Shown: in pieces, positions 735 to 15,814 of the stretch
Position numbering within the stretch: the stretch's first letter is position 1
How the letters are laid out: every line of letters begins with the position of its first letter
From: Aulosira sp. ZfuVER01
GTDB lineage: Bacteria; Cyanobacteriota; Cyanobacteriia; Cyanobacteriales; Nostocaceae
Assembly: GCA_034530615.2 (NCBI GenBank)
Contig: JAVRCV020000079.1
Span: 1 to 64,000 of the forward strand
Reading direction: 5' to 3'
DNA: 64,000 nucleotides
The notes under the pieces: model-generated
Databases searched by the model: none
Told to the model about the DNA's origin: nothing
Seen by the model: only the letters and a program-made list of their open reading frames with translations
Translations under genes and position numbers: made by a program

Positions 735-972
735 AAATTATGTTCTCAATGGTTAAGGCTCTTGAAGCTGCAATTAATTAATGATATCAACCATGTCTAC
801 TTGATAAAAAAGTATTCCTTTTTTTCCAGCCCCTGACTACCCTGTGGGAACGCTACCCTAAACTATGAGGGCGATATTTGGGGTCGTTATGGTGTTAAGT
901 TGTGGTTGTTGGCAAGTTTAGAAATTTGGTTGGAGGTGAATAGATAATCCTTATATAGTATTTGTAGTATTT

Positions 973-1657: not shown

Positions 1658-2956
1658 TCAACCGAAACTTTCGACAAAATAAATATCATTACCTGTATCG
1701 CCTACTAAAATCAAGCTACTATCATCAATTGCTAAATTTTGGCTACCAGTAATACCTCTTTGCAAAACTTTAATGATTCTTTGGGGAGTGAGAGATTCCA
1801 ATTCTACAAACTTTCCAGAATCCAACCATGCTAATTCTTCAGCAGTTAAATTCTGGCGAATTTCCCCAAACAAATCTTTAGCTGCTTGTGCTGAATCTGG
1901 AGAGGCTTGGATGAACATCCCCCGCTTAGTAGCAATAACTTGACGCGGTAATATACCAATATCGATAATCGTCACATTGCTATTGAGAAACCATTTAGGG
2001 CTGGTGCGGAGTTGATGAACTAAACTAATTCCTTTGGGACTGCAATCATGTAGTGCATATACTTTCAATTCCGGATTACGACGCAACATTTCCATTGTCG
2101 TGTCAAAGATACTTTGCGGATATCCAGTGACGCTGAGAATGGCACAGTTATTTTCAAAGTGGAAGTTATTAGATATTAATTGTTGAGCAATCGCAGTGCG
2201 ATCGCAAACTACTAATCTATCAAAACTGTAAGCAGTAACATCAGGATTGACTGTTACAGAGGCATTTTCTTCGCGCGCCGCAGGCAGAATTTTACTCACT
2301 GAACCATTGATTCTCTGCCAACGATTGAGCCATTCTTGAACCTGTACTTGTGTAATTAACAATTCCTGAACTACATCAACTCGAATTAGCTGTCTACTGC
2401 CTAAGTAGATTGATAACATTCCTGTGAGCACTACAACTACAAATGCCATGTATGATTTTAGGACAGATATACTCAAAAATATTCCTCCCACCAGAACGAT
2501 GGCTCCTGTGATTTGTAACATTCTGGCGCTCGTCTTTCTACCTATGCTGTTTAACTTACTAGATTGAGTATTTTTATATAAATAATATGTCGAACCTATT
2601 TGGTATACAGACCATACAATTAAAAAAGAACTACTTCCAAATATTTTTGAAAGTATAGTTCCAAAAAAACCTGTTACCCAAATAGTAAAGAATATATAGA
2701 TAATCAGAAAAAACCAGGTAAATGAATTTCGTTTCAGGCGCGCATCTAACAAATACAAAAGCTGTTTTGGTGTAAAAAATAATGTATTATTCGCAGAGAT
2801 ATCAGCTATAGCTTTGGCAAACATGGAGTCGGTAATTTTTACATTGCCCATAGCGGTAGGTTCAAATACAAATGGATGCCTGCATTGCATACACCGACCA
2901 TTATTAGCTGTTCTATCTCTTAGTTTATTGTCAGTTCCGCAGTTAATACATTTCAT
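1658..2956 (-). CDS. Zn-ribbon + ~4 TM + Spo11/TopoVI-A-like Toprim domain protein
   Basis: CxxC..CxxC at the N-terminus; TPKQLLY; hydrophobic segments; LVVCDRTAIAQQL, CAILSVTGYP, VYALHDCSPKG and GKFVELESL resemble TopoVI-A Toprim motifs. Confidence 0.65.
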   Translation of the reverse strand: MKCINCGTDNKLRDRTANNGRCMQCRHPFVFEPTAMGNVKITDSMFAKAIADISANNTLFFTPKQLLYLLDARLKRNSFTWFFLIIYIFFTIWVTGFFGTILSKIFGSSSFLIVWSVYQIGSTYYLYKNTQSSKLNSIGRKTSARMLQITGAIVLVGGIFLSISVLKSYMAFVVVVLTGMLSIYLGSRQLIRVDVVQELLITQVQVQEWLNRWQRINGSVSKILPAAREENASVTVNPDVTAYSFDRLVVCDRTAIAQQLISNNFHFENNCAILSVTGYPQSIFDTTMEMLRRNPELKVYALHDCSPKGISLVHQLRTSPKWFLNSNVTIIDIGILPRQVIATKRGMFIQASPDSAQAAKDLFGEIRQNLTAEELAWLDSGKFVELESLTPQRIIKVLQRGITGSQNLAIDDSSLILVGDTGNDIYFVESFG

Positions 2957-3033: not shown

Positions 3034-4221
3034 TTATTTTTCAATTACCTGATTCATTAACAAAACACTATAGTCTTCTCGCTTACGAATCAAACGATGT
3101 GTATGATTTTCTAAGAAAATTTCCGCAGGTTTAGGACGATGTAAAAAGTGAGAAGACATCGCATAACCATAAGCACCGACATCTAAAATGGCAAGAATAT
3201 CACCAATTTCTAAGGCTGGAAGTTGGCAATTTTTACCTAAATAATCTCTTGAGTAAGTCGTATTACCACAAACATCTGTTGGATAAATTCCCGTGTTCTC
3301 TCCTTTCTTCCATGTGATGATTTCTCGATAGCCACCATGTACAGCAGGAACTGAGAGATTAGCAACGGTGGTATCAACTCCCACAATCTGTTTTTCTGCT
3401 TGCCATTTTACAGATACAACTTGCGCTAACAAAGTACCACAACCTGCGATCGCAGCTCGTCCCGGTTCAATTACTAAATCAATTTTCCGCCCCAAAGCTG
3501 TAATTCGCTGTGTCAACTTTGCGCCAAACTCTTCCCAATCAAAAGCTACTCTACCGTGATGATAGGGATAGCCAAAGCCACCGCCAAAATCCAAATATTC
3601 CCAATCTGGTAACTTTTGCGCTGTCGCCAGCACAGTATCAATTACCTCGGTAAAAGCTTCTGTCGCATTAGTTCCAGTCCCCCGGTAAAAGTGCAACCCC
3701 CTGAGTTTCAATCCTGCTTGCTGAGTAATCGCCACTGCTGCGGAAAATTCCTCCGGATGTACACCAATGCGACTATCTCCAGTAAGTTCCGGTAAATTCA
3801 GCCGCAAACCCAGCCGAACTGATTCAATTTTGGATTGATAGACTTTGCAAAACAACTCCAGCTGATTAACACTGTCAAGATTGAGAGTAGTAACTCCCCA
3901 ATCCAAAACTTGAAGCATTTCATCTCGATTTAAATTACTGCCACTGTAAACAATATCACCAGGGTCAAAACCAGCTTGCAACCCCAGGTAAATATCTCCT
4001 GGTGTATTGGCGTGGAGTCCCCAGCCAGCAGCGCGAAAAATTTTGAGTAACGCAATATTCCCATTAGTAACGCTAGCAAAGTGAAATTGTGTGCGGGAAT
4101 AGGTGATGGCTTGAGTAATGCGGTTAATAGTTTGACGTAAGCGATCGCCATCATACACATAAAGCGGAGAACCGTAGATCTTTAGTAACTCCTGCGCCAA
4201 TTCTAAAGTTAAGCTTGCCAT
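3034..4221 (-). CDS. Diaminopimelate-decarboxylase-fold (PLP fold III) protein, non-canonical active site
   Basis: YGSPLYVYD, DFGGGFG, IEPGR and GAYG are conserved; FASVTN replaces FAxKAN and GNTTYSRD replaces GPxCESGD; ATG at 4221 overlaps the end of the upstream gene. Confidence 0.85.
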   Translation of the reverse strand: MASLTLELAQELLKIYGSPLYVYDGDRLRQTINRITQAITYSRTQFHFASVTNGNIALLKIFRAAGWGLHANTPGDIYLGLQAGFDPGDIVYSGSNLNRDEMLQVLDWGVTTLNLDSVNQLELFCKVYQSKIESVRLGLRLNLPELTGDSRIGVHPEEFSAAVAITQQAGLKLRGLHFYRGTGTNATEAFTEVIDTVLATAQKLPDWEYLDFGGGFGYPYHHGRVAFDWEEFGAKLTQRITALGRKIDLVIEPGRAAIAGCGTLLAQVVSVKWQAEKQIVGVDTTVANLSVPAVHGGYREIITWKKGENTGIYPTDVCGNTTYSRDYLGKNCQLPALEIGDILAILDVGAYGYAMSSHFLHRPKPAEIFLENHTHRLIRKREDYSVLLMNQVIEK

Positions 4222-6374
4222 CGCTTGTATTGTCTCCATAACCAACTAGGTAGCCAAAACGGATGATTAAGAGAATGTTTGCCTAGTTCTTCACCTAAAA
4301 TATGCGATCGCCAAAGTTGCCACATAATTAATAACCAAAGACTCTCACCAATCCGCCGCCCTTGAATAGTCCCTCCCAGTTCGCCTGTAACAATTTGTGC
4401 AGCTATTTGGGAAGAAAAACGGTTTTCAGCACTGAGTATACCTGGATTTAACCAGATACCTATATCGTGCCAAAACTCATTCAAACACCAGGAAGTTAAG
4501 GGAACACCCATACCCCGCTTTTGTCGCCAAACAATTTCCGGTGGTAGCCAATTTTCTACAGCCCGTTTGAGGATATATTTCTCACAAGCACCTTGTAAAC
4601 AGAGTTCACCAGATAAGCTAAACGTCCACTCTGCTAAAGGTATATCGCAAAAAGGCGATCGCACCCACAACCCATGCGCAAATCCCAAAGCAGTCGCACG
4701 AGGGTGGATATTTTGCGCCCCTTTCAGCATCAAGCTAGCGCGGCGGAGACGATGCAGCAAGGAAGGACAGCAAGTTGCATCCAGCGCCTCTAAAATCCAA
4801 TCTTGGGGATGTAAATTTTGTATCTGTGCGTAAACCTCTGATTGATAAATTTGCGATTCATACCCCCAAAGACGATGAAACGTGCGGAGATATTGCAGTA
4901 TAAAACTTTCTCCCGCCTGATAAATCCCCGCAGCAATTAAAGGCTTATTCGTCCACCCTGCAAATAATTGATCTCCACCTTCACCATTAAAAATTACACG
5001 AGTTTCCTGACTAGCTGTTTGCGCCAAGAGATACAAAGGAACAGTCACCCCATCACCAAAAGGTAAATCCAGTGCTTGTACAGCAGGAATTAAAGCCTTC
5101 TTAATTTCCTGGGGAGTCGCCGCCACTTTCACCAAGGGAATTTTGAGAAACTGTGCAACCTGTTCTGCATAAGGGAATTCTGGAATCCCAGCACCGCCAA
5201 AATCGAGAGTATAGGCGCGGACTTTCACCCCCGCTTGCACCAACAACGCCGCCACAATTGAAGAATCTAAGCCACCAGAGAGAAAAACTCCCACAGGTTC
5301 ATCTTTTAAATCAGCAATTTGCTGATGAATCGATGCTTTCAGGAGACTTTGCAATTGAGTAACGGCTGTAGTTTCATCTTTGATTTGTTCAGCCTGTTCC
5401 CGCCACGAATGAATACTTCGAGATTGCGGCTGACAGAGTTTACCCGATCCACAATTACCCTGCCAAATCAACTCAGTTCCCGCCGGGACTGCAAACACTT
5501 CATTAACAGGCGTTAGGGGAGTTGGGACGTAAGAAAAACAACTGTAACCATATAAGCCCGGAATGCTAACATCACGCTGTTGCAGAATCGGTAAAAGCAG
5601 TTGTAGCCGGGATGCAAACCAAATCACCTCTCCTTGCTGAGTCCAGTATAAAGGCACTCTGCCAAAAGCTTCTCTCGCCAAAATCAGGCAGTGATTTTCC
5701 CCTATACTTACCCAAGCATCCGGCGTAGAAGATAATCCTGACGCGGAAATAGCAGCAATTGTATTGTCTTGAGATTGAGAATTTTTATTTATTCCAAGAT
5801 GAACAACATTCCAAAGGAGTTGATTTTCCTTTTGGAAAAAATGCTGTGTAGACGGTGGAGACGTTGCAGACAAATTAGTTAACAACGCCGTCAATTCACG
5901 TTGAGAACCGTAACCCCAATAGCCTAGAATTGCAGGCTGTTGGACTGAGGAGAAGGAGGACAAGGGGGACAGGGGAGACAAGGGAGACAAAGGGACAAAT
6001 TGCGTTGTGAATTTATAATATCTTTTGAGCCTTTGAGCCTGAATGTTGAGCCTTTTTGCTTGGAAGTTGAACCTTTGAACCTGGAAGTTGAGCCTTTGAG
6101 CCTTTGAGCTTGACTGTTGCACCTTTTTGCTTGGACGTTGCGCCTTTGAGCTTGAACGTTGCACCTTTAAGCCTGACAGTTGCACCTTTTTGCTTGGACG
6201 TTGCGCCTTTAAGCTTGAACGTTGCACCTTTGAGCCTGGACGTTGCACCTTTTTGCTTGGACGTTGCGCCTTTGAGGCTGACAGTTGCACCTTTTTGCTT
6301 GGACGTTGCGCCTTTAAGCCTGAACGCTGCACTTTTGAGCCTAGAAGTTGCACTTTTAAGCCTGAACATTGCAC
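4209..6374 (-). CDS. Asparagine synthetase (AsnB)-like ATP-dependent amide ligase; true start uncertain, the ORF is extended through repeats
   Basis: REAFGRVPLYW, PP-loop FLSGGLDSS, NGEGGDQLFAG, RSPFCD and QKRGM; protein-like sequence begins at about 5945 and the first ~145 codons are repeat-derived. Confidence 0.8.
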   Translation of the reverse strand: MQCSGLKVQLLGSKVQRSGLKAQRPSKKVQLSASKAQRPSKKVQRPGSKVQRSSLKAQRPSKKVQLSGLKVQRSSSKAQRPSKKVQQSSSKAQRLNFQVQRFNFQAKRLNIQAQRLKRYYKFTTQFVPLSPLSPLSPLSSFSSVQQPAILGYWGYGSQRELTALLTNLSATSPPSTQHFFQKENQLLWNVVHLGINKNSQSQDNTIAAISASGLSSTPDAWVSIGENHCLILAREAFGRVPLYWTQQGEVIWFASRLQLLLPILQQRDVSIPGLYGYSCFSYVPTPLTPVNEVFAVPAGTELIWQGNCGSGKLCQPQSRSIHSWREQAEQIKDETTAVTQLQSLLKASIHQQIADLKDEPVGVFLSGGLDSSIVAALLVQAGVKVRAYTLDFGGAGIPEFPYAEQVAQFLKIPLVKVAATPQEIKKALIPAVQALDLPFGDGVTVPLYLLAQTASQETRVIFNGEGGDQLFAGWTNKPLIAAGIYQAGESFILQYLRTFHRLWGYESQIYQSEVYAQIQNLHPQDWILEALDATCCPSLLHRLRRASLMLKGAQNIHPRATALGFAHGLWVRSPFCDIPLAEWTFSLSGELCLQGACEKYILKRAVENWLPPEIVWRQKRGMGVPLTSWCLNEFWHDIGIWLNPGILSAENRFSSQIAAQIVTGELGGTIQGRRIGESLWLLIMWQLWRSHILGEELGKHSLNHPFWLPSWLWRQYKRWQA

Positions 6375-6405
6375 CTTTAAGCCTGAACGTTACGCCTTTG
6401 ATACT
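6024..6405. repeat. 21-bp tandem array, ~18 units (GTTGCACCTTT core + variable 10-mer)
   Basis: Units such as gttgcaccttt-ttgcttggac, gttgcgccttt-gagcttgaac and gttgcaccttt-aagcctgaca read directly. Confidence 0.95.
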
Positions 6406-6449
6406 AAAACTTCGAGCTTGACTTTTAACCAATGCCCCATGCCCAATAA

Positions 6450-7070
6450 CTACTTAACCTCAAACCTTTGATCGCTAATTTGCCGATCTTCAAGGAACAT
6501 CTGCACTTGCCAATTACCAACCGGTGCAGTCGCACCAATAGTATAACGACAGTAAGTATCCCAAATAGATGTATTAATATCACGAGTTTGATAACGGTTT
6601 TGCTTAACAATTTGACCGTTGGGATCGATCCAATTACAAGACAGAGATAGCTTTTTACCCACAGGTGCATCCTTCAAAGTCACACGGTAAAAAACTTCTG
6701 GACTGTTTTGCCGAGAGATACTATTTAAATTACCGCTATCCTGAACTAAAGTAATGCGGTCTTGCTGGGTAGAAACACGAGAAATTAGTGAATTATTTTG
6801 TTGCATAAAAAACACTGTAGATGCGATCGCAACTACTACAGCAGCAACTACTCCAGAAATAATCCAGCGATTTCGGCGTTCCTGTACCTTTAATGCTTGT
6901 CGCCGCCGCAACTGAATCAATGCTTCATCGAGTAACTCCGGTGGTAAATTCAACTCCCGTAAAATTTCCTGAACTTGCTGTTTGTCGAGTTCCGCTTCCT
7001 GACGTATTTGCAGCTCTTGTACTTCATCGATTATTTGTGATAATTGCTCTTGAGTTAATCGCTCCGTCAT
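6450..7070 (-). CDS. Single-TM protein with C-terminal Ig-like domain (DUF3859-like)
   Basis: N-terminal helical region, one TM (WIISGVVAAVVVAIASTVFF), CNWIDPNG and GNWQVQMFLE beta-rich domain. Confidence 0.65.
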   Translation of the reverse strand: MTERLTQEQLSQIIDEVQELQIRQEAELDKQQVQEILRELNLPPELLDEALIQLRRRQALKVQERRNRWIISGVVAAVVVAIASTVFFMQQNNSLISRVSTQQDRITLVQDSGNLNSISRQNSPEVFYRVTLKDAPVGKKLSLSCNWIDPNGQIVKQNRYQTRDINTSIWDTYCRYTIGATAPVGNWQVQMFLEDRQISDQRFEVK

Positions 7071-7339
7071 AATTAATACAACTCCTGTAAATAACTTCAG
7101 TCTCTACTTTTTCAAGCTAGACCTTCATGTAATAAATTACACGCTGATAGCATCACAACTCTCTTCTCTCTGTGCCTTTGTGTCTCTATGCTAAAAAATT
7201 TGAAACCACAGAGATACAAAGACGAAAGCAGTTGAGTTGGCAGCTTTGCCGACTTGAGCAAACTGCCCGTACAAAGTACTTTTAAGACAAACCAAGGCAT
7301 GAAAATCAATACCCAATGCCCCATTTTTAAGCTAAATAT

Positions 7340-8818
7340 ATGTCAAACTCGCTCTCAGCATCAACGGCAGGACTGGCAATTGTAGACAAAGCACGGTTGC
7401 GTCTTGGTTGGACAAAAACCAGTACAGCGCGTTGGTGGCAAGATGCCCACACTTCTAGAGCTACATTACGGCGATTCTGGCAGGGCGATCGCATTCAGCG
7501 AGAAATCTTCATCGCTATCTGTCAAGCTGTTGGTATTACTAACTGGGAAGCGATCGCAGATTCTCCCGATCTCAACTCAGAAATTATCGCAGACATCCCT
7601 ACACCTTACCTTGACTGGAATGAAGCCCCAGATGTCGAAAGTTTTTATGGGCGAAATCAGGAATTAACGCAGTTAGAACAATGGATTGAGAGTGGCTGTA
7701 AGTTAGTCATGATTGTTGGTATTGCTGGGATCGGCAAAACTGCTCTAGCACTTGCTTTAATAGATAGAATTCAATCAAAATTCGATAGCTTGATTTGGAA
7801 ATCTCTTCATTCTGCACCATCTTTAAATTCTTTACTGGATAGCTTGCTGCATAACTTTGATGAAGGCGCTGTTCGCGATCTCCCCCAACTCATACACCAC
7901 CTGCAACAACGTCGCTGTCTATTAATACTTGATGGGTTAGAAGCAGATTTGAATAACTATAGTCAATTTATCCAAAAAATTAGCCGCGGCCATCAAAGTT
8001 GCATTCTCATCACCAGCCGCGAACAACCAAAGGCGATTGAAATCGACACAAAAACAGTTCGCTGTTTAAACCTCAAGGGTTTGCCAAAAACAGAGGCTTT
8101 AGAATTATTGCAATCGAGAGGATTTACAGGTAAAGAACTAGGACTATCAGCCTTAATTCAACTTTATCGCGGCAATCCCTTAGCGCTGAAACTGGTAACG
8201 CCATTGATTCAGTTGGTGTTTGCTGGGAATGTGGCTGGATTTCTCACTCAAAATACTTTGGTGATTGGCGATCGCTTACGAGTTATTCTGAAACAACAAT
8301 TCGAGCAACTTGGCGATTTAGAACAAGATATTCTTTATTGGTTGGCAATTTGGCAAGAACCAGTCTCTTTCTCTCGCTTGCAAACTCATCTATTAATAGC
8401 CATCGATCCGGCTACGGTATTAGAGGCAATTGTCGCGTTAGAAAGGCGATCGCTTTTGGAAAAATGGATCGGTATAGGGGAAATCTCATTTAGCTTGCAA
8501 CCTTTGGTGATGAAAGTCGTTACCGATGAATTGGTAGAACAAACTGCGCAAGAGATTCAACAGGTAGTGCAGAGTAATGATATCCGTCATTTTAAAATAT
8601 TGCGCACCCATTGGTTACTGCGACCTGGTACTGATGATATTGCAGGCGATCGCATTTTGTCTCAACTGCGCGATCGTTTGTGGCGGTTGTATGGTGCAAC
8701 TCTACCACAAACCTTGGAGCAGATGTTGTTACTTTTAAAGGATAAATCTCCGTTGGCAACTGGTTATATCGCTTGTAATGTAGCGGTACTCCTTAAGCAG
8801 TTGAGGATACCTGGATGA
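7340..8818 (+). CDS. HTH + NB-ARC/STAND NTPase without C-terminal repeat domain
   Basis: HTH-like N-terminus (TSRATLRRFWQG), FYGR, Walker A GIAGIGKT, Walker B LLILDG, LITSR and GNPLAL. Confidence 0.85.
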   Translation: MSNSLSASTAGLAIVDKARLRLGWTKTSTARWWQDAHTSRATLRRFWQGDRIQREIFIAICQAVGITNWEAIADSPDLNSEIIADIPTPYLDWNEAPDVESFYGRNQELTQLEQWIESGCKLVMIVGIAGIGKTALALALIDRIQSKFDSLIWKSLHSAPSLNSLLDSLLHNFDEGAVRDLPQLIHHLQQRRCLLILDGLEADLNNYSQFIQKISRGHQSCILITSREQPKAIEIDTKTVRCLNLKGLPKTEALELLQSRGFTGKELGLSALIQLYRGNPLALKLVTPLIQLVFAGNVAGFLTQNTLVIGDRLRVILKQQFEQLGDLEQDILYWLAIWQEPVSFSRLQTHLLIAIDPATVLEAIVALERRSLLEKWIGIGEISFSLQPLVMKVVTDELVEQTAQEIQQVVQSNDIRHFKILRTHWLLRPGTDDIAGDRILSQLRDRLWRLYGATLPQTLEQMLLLLKDKSPLATGYIACNVAVLLKQLRIPG

Positions 8819-8832
8819 GTGTTTTGATATTC

Positions 8833-8886
8833 AACCACAGATAAACACCGATAATTATCTGTGTTCATCTGTGTTTATCGGTAGTT
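8833..8886. repeat. CACAGAT(A)-type dispersed repeat/hairpin (related copies at ~49450, 60066-60112, 63840-63883)
   Basis: aaccacagataaacaccgataattatctgtgttcatctgtgtttatcggtagtt. Confidence 0.65.
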
Positions 8887-9187
8887 CCTTAAAAGGATTT
8901 TTACAAGAGGGAGTAAATGTCTTCCTCCTTGGGAAATATATCAAAAGAAATAGGTAATAAAACTGTCTAAATATTTACTGTGCAAAATCTTCTTGAAACA
9001 GCTATCTTAAGGACGATGCAAAAGCTATCATTGGCTAAGTGATGTTCCAACAAGTGTTGGCAGCAACTTGTTTAATGGGTAGAGGCATGGAGTTAACTTA
9101 CAACCTTGTCCAAAAATCGCGCCAATTATGAACTTAAATTACTCCCCACAAAAAAGGGGAGCAAAAAATATATAAATTTTAAAGGCT

Positions 9188-12100
9188 ATGACTATGGCAA
9201 CTGAACAGTTAATTAAAGAAAACGACAATTTAGATTTAAAACAGCTATTAAGAATTCTAAATGCTGTCAAAAAAGGCGATTTTTCTGCTCGGATGCCCAT
9301 AGATCAAACAGGCATAGCCGGGAAAATCTCCGATACCCTTAACGACATTATTGAGCAGAATGAGCGCATGGCAGCAGAGCTACAGCGCATCGGTAATGTT
9401 GTTGGTAAAGATGGTAAGGTTTCAGAACGCGCTTCTTTAGGAAATGTTCGCGGTTCTTGGTTAAGTTGTGTTAATTCTGTTAACACATTAATTACGGATT
9501 TAGTCCAGCCAACAGCAGAAACTACTCGCGTAATTAGGGCTGTAGCTAATGGTGATTTATCCCAGACGATCGCACCAGAAATTGAAGGCAGACCCCTCAA
9601 AGGAGAGTTTCTCCAAACTGCCAACATTGTCAACACAATGGTAGATCGGCTTGGCTCCTTTGCATCGGAAGTAACCAGGGTTGCCCGGGAAGTGGGAACC
9701 GAAGGTAAGCTGGGTGTACAAGCGCAAGTTAGCGGTGTAGCGGGTACGTGGAAAGATTTGACCGATAACGTTAACTTGATGGCGGGTAATCTTACCGGAC
9801 AAGTGCGGAACATTGCCGAAGTTGCAACTGCGATCGCAAATGGCGACCTCTCGAAGAAAATTACAGTTAATGTCAAAGGCGAAATTCTCGAGTTGAAAAA
9901 CACCGTCAACACCATGGTGGATCAACTTAACTCCTTTGCCTCAGAAGTAACCAGGGTTGCCCGGGAAGTGGGAACCGAAGGTAAGTTAGGCGTACAAGCA
10001 GAAGTGCGCGGTGTGGCTGGTACGTGGAAAGACTTGACCGATAACGTGAACTTGATGGCAGGAAATTTGACTGCGCAAGTACGTAATATTGCGGAAGTAA
10101 CAACAGCGGTAGCGAATGGCGACCTCTCGAAGAAAATTACTGTAGATGTCAAGGGCGAGATTTTAGAACTGAAAAACACCGTCAATATCATGGTGGATCA
10201 ACTCAACTCCTTTGCATCAGAAGTAACCAGGGTTGCCCGAGAGGTGGGTGCAGAAGGAAAACTCGGCGGTCAAGCGGAAGTGAAGGGCGTGGCGGGTACG
10301 TGGAAAGACCTCACCGACAGCGTAAACTTCATGGCAGGCAGTTTGACAGCCCAGGTGCGGAACATCGCGGAAGTGACAACGGCGGTGGCGAATGGCGACC
10401 TTTCCAAGAAAATCACTGTGGATGTGAAAGGTGAAATTTTAGAGTTGAAAAACACGATCAACACGATGGTGGATCAACTCAACTCCTTTGCCTCAGAAGT
10501 AACACGGGTGGCGAGAGAGGTGGGAACGGAAGGAAAACTGGGCGTACAAGCAGAAGTGCGAGGGGTAGCGGGTACGTGGAAAGACCTCACCGACAATGTA
10601 AACCTGATGGCGGGGAATCTTACCGGACAGGTGCGGAACATTGCGGAAGTGACAACGGCGGTGGCGAACGGCGACCTCTCGAAGAAAATCACTGTGGATG
10701 TCAAGGGCGAAATTTTGGAGTTGAAAAACACCGTTAATATCATGGTGGATCAACTTAACTCTTTTGCATCAGAAGTAACCAGGGTTGCCCGAGAGGTGGG
10801 TGCAGAAGGAAAACTCGGCGGTCAAGCGGAAGTGAAGGGCGTGGCGGGTACGTGGAAAGACCTCACCGACAGCGTAAACTTCATGGCAGGCAGTTTGACA
10901 GCCCAGGTGCGGAACATCGCAGAAGTAACAACAGCGGTGGCAACCGGCGACCTTTCCAAGAAAATCACTGTGGATGTGAAAGGCGAAATTCTGGAGTTAA
11001 AAAACACGATCAACACAATGGTGGATCAACTCAACTCCTTCGCCTCAGAAGTAACCAGAGTTGCCCGAGAGGTGGGAAGTGAAGGAAAATTAGGCGTACA
11101 AGCCGAAGTGCGTGGGGTGGCAGGTACGTGGAAAGACCTCACCGACAGCGTGAACTTCATGGCAGGCAGTTTGACAGCCCAAGTACGGAACATCGCGGAA
11201 GTGACAACGGCGGTGGCGAACGGCGACCTTTCTAAGAAAATCACCGTGGATGTGCGGGGCGAAATTTTGGAGTTGAAAAATACCATCAATACAATGGTGG
11301 ATCAACTGAGTTCCTTTGCATCGGAAGTAACTAGGGTTGCCCGAGAGGTGGGAACGGAAGGGAAATTAGGCGTACAAGCCGAGGTGCGAGGTGTAGCGGG
11401 TACGTGGAAGGATTTGACTGGTGCGGTGAATATGATGGCGGGTAATCTGACCGACCAGGTACGGAACATCGCCGAAGTTGCAACTGCGATCGCCAACGGC
11501 GACCTCTCAAAGAAAATCACCGTGCAAGTTAAAGGTGAAATTCTCGAGTTGAAAAACACGATCAACATCATGGTGGATCAGCTCAACTCCTTCGCCTCAG
11601 AAGTAACCAGGGTGGCGCGAGAAGTAGGAAGTGAAGGAAAACTGGGCGTACAAGCAGATGTGCGCGGTGTGGCGGGTACGTGGAAAGACCTCACCGACAG
11701 CGTGAACTTCATGGCGGGTAGTTTGACGGCCCAGGTACGGAACATCGCCGCTGTGACAACGGCGGTGGCAAATGGCGACCTTTCTAAGAAAATTTCTGTG
11801 GATGTCAAAGGTGAAATTTTGGAGTTAAAAAACACCGTCAATACGATGGTGGATCAACTCAACTCCTTCGCCTCAGAAGTAACGCGGGTGGCACGAGAGG
11901 TGGGAACTGAAGGAAAATTAGGCGTACAAGCCGAGGTGAAGGGAGTCGCGGGTACGTGGAAAGACCTCACCGACAGCGTGAACTTCATGGCGGGAAGCTT
12001 GACGGCACAGGTGCGGAACATCGCGGAAGTGACAACGGCGGTGGCGAACGGCGACCTTTCCAAGAAAATCACTGTGGATGTGAAAGGCGAAATTCTGGAG

Positions 12101-15100
12101 TTGAAAAACACGATCAACACAATGGTGGATCAACTTAACTCCTTTGCCTCAGAAGTAACCAGGGTTGCCCGGGAGGTGGGAACCGAAGGTAAACTGGGCG
12201 TGCAAGCCTACGTCCGCGGGGTCGCGGGTACGTGGAAAGATTTGACCGACAATGTAAACTCAATGGCGGGGAACCTGACAGCCCAGGTGCGGAACATTGC
12301 GGAAGTGACGAAGGCGGTGGCGAACGGCGACCTCTCGAAAAAAATCACCGTGGATGTGCGGGGTGAAATTTTGGAGTTGAAAGACACCATCAATACAATG
12401 GTGGATCAGCTAAGTTCCTTTGCCTCAGAAGTAACGCGGGTGGCGCGGGAGGTGGGAACGGAAGGAAAATTAGGCGGTCAAGCGCAAGTGCAAGGCGTAG
12501 CGGGAACGTGGAAAGATTTGACCGACAATGTGAACTCGATGGCGGGTAACTTAACAGCCCAGGTGCGAGGTATCGCCAGAGTTGTAACGGCGGTGGCGAA
12601 TGGGGACTTGAAACGCAAATTAATGCTGGATGCTAAGGGAGAAATTGAAACTTTAGCAGAGACCATCAACGAAATGATTGACACCCTTGCCACCTTTGCC
12701 AATCAGGTAACTACAGTGGCGCGGGAAGTGGGAATTGAAGGAAAGCTAGGCGGTCAAGCTAAGGTACCTGGTGCGGCGGGAACCTGGAAAGATTTGACAG
12801 ACAACGTGAACGAACTGGCTGCAACTCTCACCACCCAGCTAAGAGCGATCGCAGAAGTGGCAACAGCGGTAACAAAAGGCGATCTAACTCGTTCGATTGC
12901 GGTGGAAGCTTTAGGGGAAGTAGCGATCCTTAAAGACAACATCAACCAGATGATCGCTAACCTGCGAGAGACAACGCAGAAAAATACCGAACAAGACTGG
13001 TTAAAAACTAACCTCGCCAAGTTTACCCGAATGCTGCAAGGTCAGCGCGATTTGGAAACTGTATCCAAATTAATTCTCTCCGAACTTGCACCCCTGGTAG
13101 GAGCGCAACATGGCGTATTCTACATGATGGAAAGCCCAGAGAATCAAGCCTATCTCAAACTACTGAGTAGCTATGCTTACCGCGAACGTAAACATTTAGC
13201 TAACCGCTTCCACATGGGTGAAGGTTTGGTAGGACAATGCGCTTTAGAAAAAGAGCGAATTCTGCTCACAGATGTACCGGGTGATTATGTCAAAATTAGC
13301 TCTGGTTTAGGAGAATCCGCGCCACTCAATGCGGTTGTTTTACCTGTATTGTTTGAAGGGCAAGTAACGGCGGTGATTGAATTAGCTTCCTTCCGCCGCT
13401 TTAGCGAGATTCATTTAACCTTCTTCGACCAACTCACTGAAAGTATTGCGATCGTCTTAAATACGATCGCGGCTTCGATGCGGACTGAAGAATTGCTCAA
13501 GCAGTCGCAATCTTTGGCAGAAGAACTGCAAACCCAGCAAAACGAACTGAGAGAAACCAACAAGCGTCTAGAACAGCAAGCCCAATCACTCAAAGCTTCC
13601 GAAGATTTACTCAGAGGACAGCAAGAAGAACTGCAACAAACCAACGCGGAATTAGAAGAAAAAGCCGAGTTGCTGGCACTGCAAAAGAAAGAAGTCGAGC
13701 GTAAAAATCTAGAAATTGAACAAGCAAGAAAGTCTTTGGAAGAGAAAGCAGAACAACTAGCCCTCTCATCTAAATATAAGTCTGAGTTTCTGGCGAATAT
13801 GTCCCACGAACTGCGGACACCGCTAAATAGCTTGTTAATTTTGGCTCGGCTATTAGCAGATAACATTGAAGGCAATCTCACCAGTAAGCAAATTGAATAT
13901 AGCCAGACAATTTACTCAGCAGGTACTGACTTGTTGACGTTGATTAATGACATTTTGGATCTGGCGAAAATCGAATCTGGAACTATGTCAATTGATCTGC
14001 ACCAGATGTTATTTTCCGAGTTGGGCGATCAACTCGAGCGCACCTTTGGGCAAATCGCCCAGAATAAAGGACTCAACTTTACAATTGACTTGGCTCCCGA
14101 ATTACCCAAAACCCTATACACCGATAGCAAACGCTTACAACAAGTACTGAAGAATTTACTTTCCAATGCCTTTAAATTTACAGAACGTGGAGAGGTAAGC
14201 TTGCGGGTTGAGGTGGCTAAAGAAGGTTGGAGCGTCTCTCAAGAAAGCTTGAATCGCGCCCAAACTGTGATTGCTTTCTCGGTTAGCGATACAGGTATTG
14301 GGATTGCGCCAGAAAAACAAAAAGTAATTTTTGAAGCTTTCCAACAAGCTGATGGTAGTACGAGTAGAAAATACGGCGGTACAGGATTAGGCTTATCAAT
14401 TAGCCGCGAAATTGCCCGCTTGTTTGGTGGCGAAATCAAACTTGTTAGTCACCCCAGTCAAGGAAGTACTTTTACTTTCTACTTACCGCAAACGAGTCCA
14501 GAGTTACGTGGGTTAAGTCCTGAGACTTTAACACCAAGACCAATTTCCCTCTCCAACTCTAATTCTCTCAAGCCTCAGTTGCCATTAACTAGTCTCAACT
14601 CCTCACCCCTGAATGACGATCGCGCTATTCTCGCAGACGACGATCGCGTGCTGCTAATTGTGGAAGATGACATCAACTTCGCCCGTATCCTCCTAGATAT
14701 GGCGCGACAGCAGGGTTTTAAGGTAATCACCGCCCAAAACGGCAGTATCGGCCTCACCCTAGCACAGCAATTCCAGCCTTCCGCAATTTTATTAGATATC
14801 CGCTTGCCAGAGATGGATGGCTGGACGGTGCTAGATCGGCTGAAACATAACCCCCATACCCGTCACATCCCTGTACATATTATGACGGTTGAGGAAGGGC
14901 GACAACGCGGACTGCAACTCGGAGCGATCGCCTATCTGCAAAAGCCCTTAACTAGCGAGACAATTTCCGATGCCTTAACTAAAATTAAAGGCTTTATCGA
15001 ACGGCGAGTGAAAAGCCTGCTGGTAGTGGAAGATGATGATACCCAACGCAACAGCATTATCGAATTAATTGGTAACAGTGACGTAACCACCACGGCGGTA

Positions 15101-15814
15101 GGTACAGGTGCAGAAGCCTTGGAAGCAATTCGCAATCAGTATTTTGATTGCCTTGTCCTCGATTTAGGACTACCAGATATGAGTGGTTTTGAATTGATCG
15201 AGCAGATTAAGCAGCTACCCAATGGTGAATCTTTACCTGTAATTGTTTATACTGGGCAAGAACTTAACAGAACACAAGAAACCGAACTGCGGCGGTTAGC
15301 GGATACGATTATCGTCAAAGATGTGCGATCGCCCGAACGTCTTTTAGATGAAACCGCATTATTTTTACACCGAGTCCAAGCAAATTTACCTGCACCCAAA
15401 CGAGAAATCCTCGAACAGCTACACGCTAGAGACTACTTACTCACAGGTAAGAAAGTGCTAATTGTAGACGACGATGTGCGTAATATCTTTGCCTTAACAA
15501 GTATGCTAGAGCGTTATCAAATGCAGGTGGTATACGCAGAGAATGGGAGAGAAGGTATTGCCGTTTTAGAAAAGACACCCGATATTGATATTGTTTTGAT
15601 GGACGTAATGATGCCCGAAATGGACGGTTACGAAACAACACGTTTAATCCGCCAGAACAATAAATTACGAGCCTTGCCGATCGTGGCACTCACAGCTAAA
15701 GCCATGCAAGGCGATCGCGAAAAATGCATTGAAGCCGGCGCATCCGACTACATCACCAAACCTGTAGATACAGAACAATTGCTTTCTTTATTGCGCGTTT
15801 GGCTATATAGATAG
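9188..15814 (+). CDS. Poly-HAMP hybrid histidine kinase (HAMP array-GAF-coiled coil-HisKA-HATPase-3 REC)
   Basis: About 12-13 tandem 92-aa units ([18 protein letters not shown]), H-box [24 protein letters not shown], three receiver domains. Confidence 0.95.
9600..12960 (+). repeat. 276-bp intragenic tandem repeat encoding di-HAMP units
   Basis: gaagtaaccagggttgcc-like motif recurs every 276 bp. Confidence 0.95.

Follow-up and report, generated by a model that had tools for sequence, protein, structure and literature searches.

An open reading frame (ORF) at 3034..4221 on the minus strand of contig JAVRCV020000079.1, from the cyanobacterium Aulosira sp. ZfuVER01, encodes the protein under study here, which we call T: a 395-residue, LysA-like member of the fold-III enzymes that depend on pyridoxal 5'-phosphate (PLP). 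The stretch analyzed (hereafter the window) comprises the first 64,000 nucleotides of the contig. T is the third in a row of four minus-strand genes, being preceded by a DUF3859-like gene and an AsnB-like ATP ligase (ligase 1) and followed by a Toprim protein with an acidic C-terminal tail. The gene starts with an ATG at 4221, a TTG at 4245 also being possible in frame, and stops with the TAA at 3034-3036.

A LysA fold without the Schiff-base lysine

Profile searches place both the alanine-racemase barrel (PF02784) and the beta domain (PF00278) in T at full length and above cut-off, in agreement with an earlier note on this DNA that had called the frame complete. The AlphaFold model has a predicted local distance difference test (pLDDT) score of 94.6 and matches fold-III decarboxylases with template-modelling (TM) scores of 0.81-0.91. 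The top database matches are all diaminopimelate (DAP) decarboxylases; homologues are named 'decarboxylase' or 'diaminopimelate decarboxylase family protein', an Atlas search with T returned decarboxylase-family clusters only, and cluster look-ups gave generic names only. Scored by the lysA model TIGR01048, T reaches 260 bits, under the curated cut-off of 297.9.

T was aligned to the solved DAP decarboxylases 2p3e, 2yxx and 3c5q and to the LysA of its own genome, with equivalences to Thermotoga maritima residues counted along the 2yxx alignment. Fold-III decarboxylases carry a catalytic cysteine in addition to the lysine that binds the cofactor. Residue roles in LysA (K46, D65, H179, S182, E246, R249, R285, E315 and Y343) follow PMC8277567, and that of the cysteine follows Cys360 of ornithine decarboxylase (ODC) as given in PMC9081730. 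In this alignment the Schiff-base lysine (K46) is replaced by Val51 of T, encoded by GTT at 4069..4071 (minus strand, as are all positions in T). His70 lies at the position of Asp65, Tyr179 (3685..3687) stands in place of the PLP-stacking His179, and Thr182 takes the place of Ser182. Thr322 (3256..3258), within the motif GNTTYSRD, falls at the conserved cysteine, Cys314 of LysA; Val291 lies at Arg285, and Tyr323 at Glu315, the residue that binds the distal amine of DAP.

The remainder of the cofactor site is kept. Glu246, Arg249 and Tyr343 of LysA correspond to Glu252, Arg255 and Tyr351, the GGG loop (G213-215) is present, and the motifs GGGFG (213-217), EPGR (252-255) and GAYG (349-352) are intact. 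The EPGR motif (3457..3468), which supplies Arg255 and the pyridine-nitrogen partner Glu252, is invariant in 38 diverse lysine-less sequences, as are Arg140, Gly153, Gly254, Asp326, Gly349 and Tyr351, at a mean column identity of 33%. The active-site lid, Arg140-Gly153 (3763..3804), is shortened to 14 residues, as compared to 24 in 71 of the 82 lysine-bearing sequences of the survey described below.

T therefore has the LysA fold but lacks both the Schiff-base lysine and the catalytic cysteine. The earlier note had read a valine at the PLP lysine, threonine for cysteine (GNTTYSRD in place of GPLCESGD), HFYRGTG for HxHIGS and HANT for DxxS, all around an intact phosphate cup, and the alignments bear out each of these. 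Its view that T is not a DAP decarboxylase is strengthened by the loss of the DAP-binding Arg285 and Glu315 equivalents; these same losses, together with a canonical LysA in the same genome, support its suggestion of a repurposed fold misannotated as lysA.

The substitutions are fixed and the pocket is under selection

Among close homologues (the query and its 119 hits, for the most part near-identical Nostoc proteins of 68-90% identity and hence far from independent), Val51, His70, Arg151, Tyr179 and Thr322 are each present in 120 of 120, so that the exchanges of lysine for valine and cysteine for threonine are conserved. In a wider set of 69 operon loci, mostly cyanobacterial but with some records titled Blastocatellia and Heliobacteriaceae, Val51 is found in 68 (the exception is a fragment with a gap) and Thr322 in all 69, while His70, Tyr179, Arg180, Thr321/322, Arg325 and His358 are each kept in 65-69. 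The ratio of nonsynonymous to synonymous substitution rates (dN/dS) between T and nine orthologues lies at 0.11-0.21 in all nine pairs. Because these five residues are fixed across homologues, strain-specific decay or chance is not the cause of the substitutions in T.

The genome holds three further fold-III genes, all of which bear the lysine. One is the canonical LysA, of 467 residues and 25% identical to T; we read the other two as an arginine-decarboxylase-like protein and a third enzyme. This third gene (G000:C25:169994-173713; 412 residues) sits on a long branch and is flanked by two paralogues of ~340 residues, which we read as ATP-grasp ligases, with an AsnB-type gene ~8 kb away on the same contig.

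T belongs to a lysine-less clade

We surveyed active-site residues in the 150 best representatives of 50%-identity clusters together with three proteins from the genome itself; 128 of these are near full length, and since the survey was ranked by likeness to T, lysine-less rows are enriched among them. The lysine is present in 82 of the 128 and replaced in 46 (by Met in 26, Val in 9, Phe in 7 and other residues in 4). The two groups differ in concert at other positions: position 179 is Tyr in 42 of 46 rows without lysine versus His in 77 of 82 with it, position 182 is Thr in 40 of 46 versus Ser in 78 of 82, and position 151 is Arg in 39 of 46 versus Lys in 81 of 82. At position 322, cysteine occurs in 79 of 82 lysine-bearing rows and is not one of the six residues seen most often in the others. 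The partner aspartate, which forms a salt bridge to the free lysine in LysA (PMC8277567), is Asp or Glu in 82 of 82 lysine-bearing rows, and the commonest lysine-less rows have F, H, L, Q, T or C there. By comparison, Arg140 and Glu252 are present in 46 of 46 lysine-less rows, and Arg255, Asp326 and Tyr351 in 45 of 46. The exchanges are thus coordinated, and the invariant ligands and the dN/dS values show that the pocket is under selection. The sole lysine column conserved across the clade, Lys272 (40 of 46 lysine-less rows), is, judged by sequence, unlikely to provide a substitute for the Schiff-base lysine, because it is equally conserved in lysine-bearing LysA sequences (74 of 82).

In a midpoint-rooted FastTree phylogeny of 145 rows, from which the truncated P0166 was left out, all 59 true lysine-less rows form a single branch (support 99) that nests among LysA-like rows. 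P0221 and P0234, which lack the lysine, fall among LysA as separate degenerate rows; matches in two genomes (G016 and G088) that had been considered lysine-less members proved to carry the lysine and to group with LysA. Record titles within the clade span Cyanobacteria, Actinomycetota, Pseudomonadota, Myxococcota, Planctomycetota, Bacillota, Acidobacteriota, Bacteroidota and others. In the subclade of T, the lysine position holds valine and the lid has 14 residues in 66 of 70 rows; to judge from the alignment, a lid ten residues shorter would give large substrates access to the site. Of 80 metagenome loci, eight were examined and comprise four lysine-less and four LysA genes. Phage-record matches to T are weak (23-30% identity), and those annotated are LysA. 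Full-text literature searches, which left most subscription papers and all supplements outside their reach, turned up no paper that describes a lysine-less fold-III clade or the operon. T is a real, conserved and uncharacterized variant of a known fold.

T is encoded with ATP ligases and a tailed protein

The first gene of the operon (6450..7070, minus strand) encodes a protein of 206 residues that crosses the membrane once and matches DUF3859 weakly. It is followed by ligase 1 (4209..5990, minus), in which the SGGLDSS, GEGGD and RxK motifs are intact, the N-terminal domain is shrunken and an N-terminal Met-Cys is lacking; its stop overlaps the start of T by 13 nucleotides. The start of ligase 1 is uncertain, with homology beginning at ~5936 and candidate starts at a TTG within 5963-5990 or, through a repeat-derived extension, at a GTG at 6374. 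The repeats lie between the DUF3859-like gene and ligase 1 and consist of ~17.6 degenerate 21-bp units at 6025-6401 (with higher periods of 42 and 63 bp) and of 9-bp units at 5949-5998; they hold the ligase 1 frame open for ~145 additional Lys/Ser/Gln-rich codons, and the homologous start has no ATG.

A paralogous ligase, ligase 2, is usually convergent behind the Toprim gene in relatives. In this genome the intact gene is found on another contig (G000:C81:172-1893, minus), and a copy of its 3' end, 91% identical over 81 nucleotides, remains in the window at 868-948 (plus strand), at the convergent position that the full gene has in relatives. Beside this copy lie a DUF3368/UPF0175 pair (29-734, minus) and then an FmdE-family gene (984-1544), and the contig opens with a 55-nucleotide repeat common to other contig ends. 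The region 29-948 looks like an insertion that has parted ligase 2 from the operon. The PP-loop synthetase domain PF00733 is found in the partner ligase with an E-value of 8e-57, SGG.DSS and GE.GD are conserved in both ligases, and both score under the TIGR01536 cut-off. A simple pattern search, which misses non-ATG starts, found a Met-Cys start in the first 60 residues of none of 58 ligase-1 and none of 45 ligase-2 ORFs. As no such glutaminase start was found, the ligases would need an amine from outside.

The arrangement recurs. Operon counts were drawn from 71 loci, many of them cut short, into which 49 of the 80 fetched loci of relatives entered; the remaining 31 belong to the sister clade and served for the neighbor survey only. 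Of the 71 loci, 70 contain T, 69 an AsnB-like gene, 64 the Toprim protein and 56 the DUF3859-like gene. In a sample of 401 genomes of the cyanobacterial phylum, where relatedness among the genomes inflates co-occurrence, T occurs in 54 (57 hits less three of LysA type, two of them checked and the third, in G094, dropped on similar identity), ligase 1 in 53, all within these 54, the Toprim protein in 63, including all 54, and ligase 2 in 62, including 52 of the 54. The operon is thus found in about one-seventh of the sampled genomes, and the fetched loci come from genera including Nostoc, Microcoleus and Crocosphaera.

In eight genomes the genes for the Toprim protein and ligase 2 adjoin while T and ligase 1 are both missing, indicating that T is dispensable for this core. 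One genome (G314) has all four of T, ligase 1, the Toprim gene and the DUF3859-like gene in broken form. From these eight genomes and this joint decay, the system divides into a core of tailed protein and ligase 2 and an add-on of T and ligase 1. In two sequences (G202:C192:11105-12865 and P0138), ligase 1 continues in frame into the C-terminal portion of T, a fusion that seems to have arisen by deletion. A related gene family stands directly upstream of the operon in five of the 71 loci (L093, L114, L129, L110 and L119), its L093 member carrying TrkA-N and ion-channel domains.

The last gene of the operon (1658..2956, minus) encodes a 432-residue protein with a Zn ribbon, a membrane helix and a TOP6A-like Toprim domain, ending in ...FVESFG. 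Its likeness to topoisomerase VI subunit A is restricted to the Toprim domain (E-value 2e-4), PF21180 being matched in 26 of 37 members, and read against known Toprim motifs the catalytic acidic motifs appear remodelled (VVCD, HDxS). The acidic tail is predicted to be disordered (pLDDT below 50 over residues 408-432), and its terminal FG, here within ESFG (1661..1672, minus), is present in 71 of 76 homologous ORFs. One locus (L248; G429:C9:168000-187000) lacks T and has three tandem Toprim paralogues without the tail, while a separate, unrelated protein of ~170 residues directly before ligase 2 ends in DDDFG. Homologues of that protein, which bear the names of Streptomyces proteins, end in DDFG in 118 of 120 listed (329 found). 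Because this locus carries the tail on an unrelated protein while its Toprim paralogues lack it, the tail is a separable module. The Toprim/tail protein was matched in one of 251 genomes from the phylum of genome G405. Nine loci (L039, L040, L084, L090, L101, L124, L126, L131 and L134) carry two or three tandem copies of the tailed Toprim gene.

Prediction of a complex between ligase 2 and the Toprim protein with its tail gave a weak result, with a score of 0.46 against 0.02 for the best control, contacts agreeing to at least 41% and a partner pLDDT of at least 74. The mark used was reached by 51 of 78 solved pairs and 2 of 108 mismatched pairs; at scores of 0.60 or less, it was reached by 5 of the 78 solved pairs and all 4 passing mismatches.

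A search of seven proteins with PADLOC, for anti-phage defence systems, gave no match to a system core, the one hit being a weak match of ligase 1 to a QueC PP-loop, and lends no support to a defence role. On the ligase 2 contig, FemAB-like, polyamine-aminopropyltransferase-like and two membrane-protein genes (5667-9770 of locus L215, on C81) lie 4-8 kb from ligase 2; two flanking genes presumably belong to DUF350 and DUF4178. A link of these spermidine-synthase-like and FemAB-like genes to T was considered and rejected, none of them recurring near T in the other 70 loci.

Comparison with known systems

T resembles LysA (TIGR01048; 2p3e, 2yxx, 2qgh, 1ko0) in its fold (TM scores of 0.84-0.90, ~28% identity), its phosphate cup, the Glu and Arg of EPGR and the Tyr of GAYG. 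It differs from LysA in the loss of the Schiff-base lysine, partner aspartate, stacking histidine, cysteine and DAP-binding Arg285/Glu315, in a lid ten residues shorter and in gene context. A closer functional parallel may lie in BtrK, the N-terminal domain of MccE, and Mur23, which, according to PMC11350588, are LysA-like proteins that are encoded with ligases or S-adenosylmethionine (SAM)-dependent transferases and decarboxylate tethered or bulky amino-acid units. BtrK structures (2j66, 7ru7) are among the structure matches of T, and an enzyme suited to loading a substrate is likewise encoded alongside T (the AsnB-like ligase, 69 of 71 loci). By analogy, T most likely works as these tailoring decarboxylases do. 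They differ from T in being described as conventional PLP decarboxylases, and their partners are an acyl carrier protein with an ATP-grasp enzyme, or MccD or Mur24, rather than AsnB-like ligases and a tailed membrane protein.

The exosortase A-associated system likewise pairs a fold-III decarboxylase (TIGR03099) with an AsnB-like amidotransferase (TIGR03108). T scores 119 bits against a cut-off of 478 for that decarboxylase, however, and the ligases 155 and 258 against a cut-off of 817, and the T locus has neither an acyl-CoA ligase nor an exosortase. Asparagine synthetase-like enzymes also act on peptide C-termini: TsrC, ScdTA and PesC adenylate a peptide C-terminus and add ammonia (bioRxiv 10.64898/2026.03.11.711119), and FzmA adds hydrazine there (PMC13622209). 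The present system shares with them the AsnB fold and a co-encoded protein with a conserved C-terminus (FG in 71 of 76; DDFG in 118 of 120 listed). It differs in having two paralogous ligases that lack the glutaminase cysteine, a lysine-less B6 protein alongside them and, as presumed substrate, the tail of a membrane protein.

Proteins that have dispensed with the lysine or with catalysis are known elsewhere. E1 and ColD are B6 enzymes in which histidine replaces the Schiff-base lysine; they belong to fold I, unlike T. Antizyme inhibitor is a catalytically dead fold-III homologue, and its structures (3btn, 4zgz) are distant from T (E-values 8e-5 to 2e-4).

A possible role in protein modification

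The company of the ligases and the tailed protein suggests that T belongs to a hitherto undescribed pathway of protein modification and not to lysine synthesis. The explanation that we favor, and hold tentatively, is that T is a lysine-free PLP decarboxylase whose amine product, made or trimmed by it, is attached to the tail by the ligases. T would hold PLP non-covalently via the retained phosphate cup and the pyridine-binding glutamate, and the substrate amine would condense straight with the free PLP aldehyde, with no internal aldimine being formed. The reaction would most likely be alpha-decarboxylation of a carrier-bound or bulky amino-acid unit rather than of DAP. The two glutaminase-less ligases would adenylate a carboxylate of the acidic xxFG tail and couple an amine to it, and T, as an add-on usually accompanying ligase 1, would either make that amine or decarboxylate the amino acid once attached, finishing tethered substrates in the manner of BtrK and MccE.

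Several points weigh against this proposal. Lysine mutants of ODC turn over slowly without transimination. PMC8277567 describes the lysine as anchoring the cofactor and also as the probable proton donor, and no replacement acid is conserved across the clade, His70 being present in 14 and Thr322 in 24 of the 46 lysine-less rows. The genes neighboring T offer no clue to a substrate, and the structure matches include no solved structure of a clade member. The tie to the ligases is also imperfect: the co-occurrence counts are inflated by relatedness, the eight genomes noted above keep the core without T, one genome (G019) has T without ligase 1, and at three loci (L096, L105 and L132) T has no ligase 1 next to it. 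The predicted complex, besides scoring weakly, does not include T.

A broader reading, which we consider possible if doubtful, is of a multi-phylum fold-III clade that turns over with non-covalent PLP and has a cyanobacterial branch devoted to protein conjugation. The ligases would here activate the C-terminal glycine of the xxFG tail, much as E1 enzymes do with ubiquitin-like proteins (an analogy only), and the partner joined to the tail, be it an amine, a polyamine, a lipid or a protein, would be made or matured by T.

Other uses of the pocket have to be weighed against these. T could be a B6 enzyme with different chemistry, namely decarboxylation-dependent transamination, oxidative deamination or a reaction of pyridoxamine 5'-phosphate (PMP) on a carbonyl, yielding an aldehyde and PMP, or ammonia, and so might feed ammonia or aldehyde to the glutaminase-less ligases. 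The loss of both proton-handling residues, the absence of a nitrogen source in the ligases themselves, and PDB entry 9cpz, a Cys-to-Ser fold-III decarboxylase variant titled as a complex with PMP and 4-guanidinobutanal, would fit this idea, as would the use of PMP by the Lys-to-His enzymes E1 and ColD. We nonetheless regard it as rather unlikely: PMP can be recycled only with the help of a base, which the clade as a whole does not conserve; ligase 2 is retained without T in eight genomes; and, according to PMC7497351, O2 chemistry in fold-III decarboxylases is so far without evidence. It is also unlikely, though the joint loss of Lys, Asp, His and Cys could be so explained, that T is a non-catalytic subunit or sensor that binds PLP or a PLP-amino-acid adduct and, much like antizyme inhibitor, serves to activate or scaffold ligase 1. 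The pairing of T with ligase 1 (53 of 54), the overlap of their stop and start and the shrunken N-terminal domain of ligase 1 favor such a partnership, yet the same residue signature occurs in subclades whose neighbors are radical SAM enzymes, methyltransferases, spermidine-synthase-like proteins or an acyl carrier protein, and T occurs without ligase 1 in G019 and L140. Such varied neighbors fit a reusable enzyme better than a dedicated partner.

The phosphate cup is no proof of PLP, and the pocket might instead bind a phosphorylated ligand other than B6, with cofactor-free chemistry performed by His70, Tyr179, Arg180, Thr321/322, Arg325 and His358, the new polar residues kept in 65-69 of 69 operon members. 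That Glu252, the pyridine-nitrogen partner, is present in 46 of 46 lysine-less rows and that the ring-stacking position is still aromatic make this distinctly improbable. An ordinary or decaying second lysA, as the best database matches, all DAP decarboxylases, might imply, is least credible and close to dismissed, given the canonical lysA elsewhere in the genome, the lost DAP-binding residues, substitutions fixed across many genera, a dN/dS of 0.11-0.21 and a score under the TIGR01048 cut-off.

PLP decarboxylases are taken to be defined by their Schiff-base lysine. A large natural clade that lacks it but keeps the pocket makes it possible to test directly whether PLP turnover without the lysine is a genuine biological strategy. 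The clade also marks as wrong many 'lysA' and 'alanine racemase' annotations in biosynthetic clusters. The setting of T is compact: it has five genes, and the xxFG tail offers a candidate for the substrate peptide.

Other branches of the clade and other genes of the window

Members with methionine at the lysine position adjoin or are fused to spermidine-synthase-like proteins, with a methyltransferase and an EamA exporter nearby. These spermidine-synthase-like proteins have GGGPGG or GGANGG where Bacillus subtilis SpeE has GGGDGG, the aspartate of which selects decarboxylated SAM. The combination recalls the aminocarboxypropyl-transfer and decarboxylation logic of MccD/MccE (PMC11350588). At L066, L059, L063, L070, L077, L085 and related loci there is a recurring, multi-phylum operon of a lysine-less gene and two spermidine-synthase-like genes without the GGGD aspartate, to which the L066-type operons often add the methyltransferase and the EamA exporter; the product, judged from gene content, may be a modified polyamine. 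Elsewhere, lysine-less genes stand beside B12 radical-SAM enzymes (L055, L065 and L087), a Mesorhizobium plasmid combines radical SAM genes with a relative of T annotated as 'alanine racemase', and at L140, in the short-lid subclade of T, an adenylation enzyme and an acyl carrier protein adjoin. What these branches have in common is a place in tailoring clusters, among enzymes by which amino-acid units are built or tethered, as is the case for BtrK, MccE and Mur23.

Divergent from the operon, the window encodes a 492-residue NB-ARC/STAND protein (7340-8818). Beyond it lies an internally repetitive protein of 2208 residues (9188-15814); we read it as a hybrid histidine kinase with multiple HAMP domains, and the gene that comes next as CheR-like.

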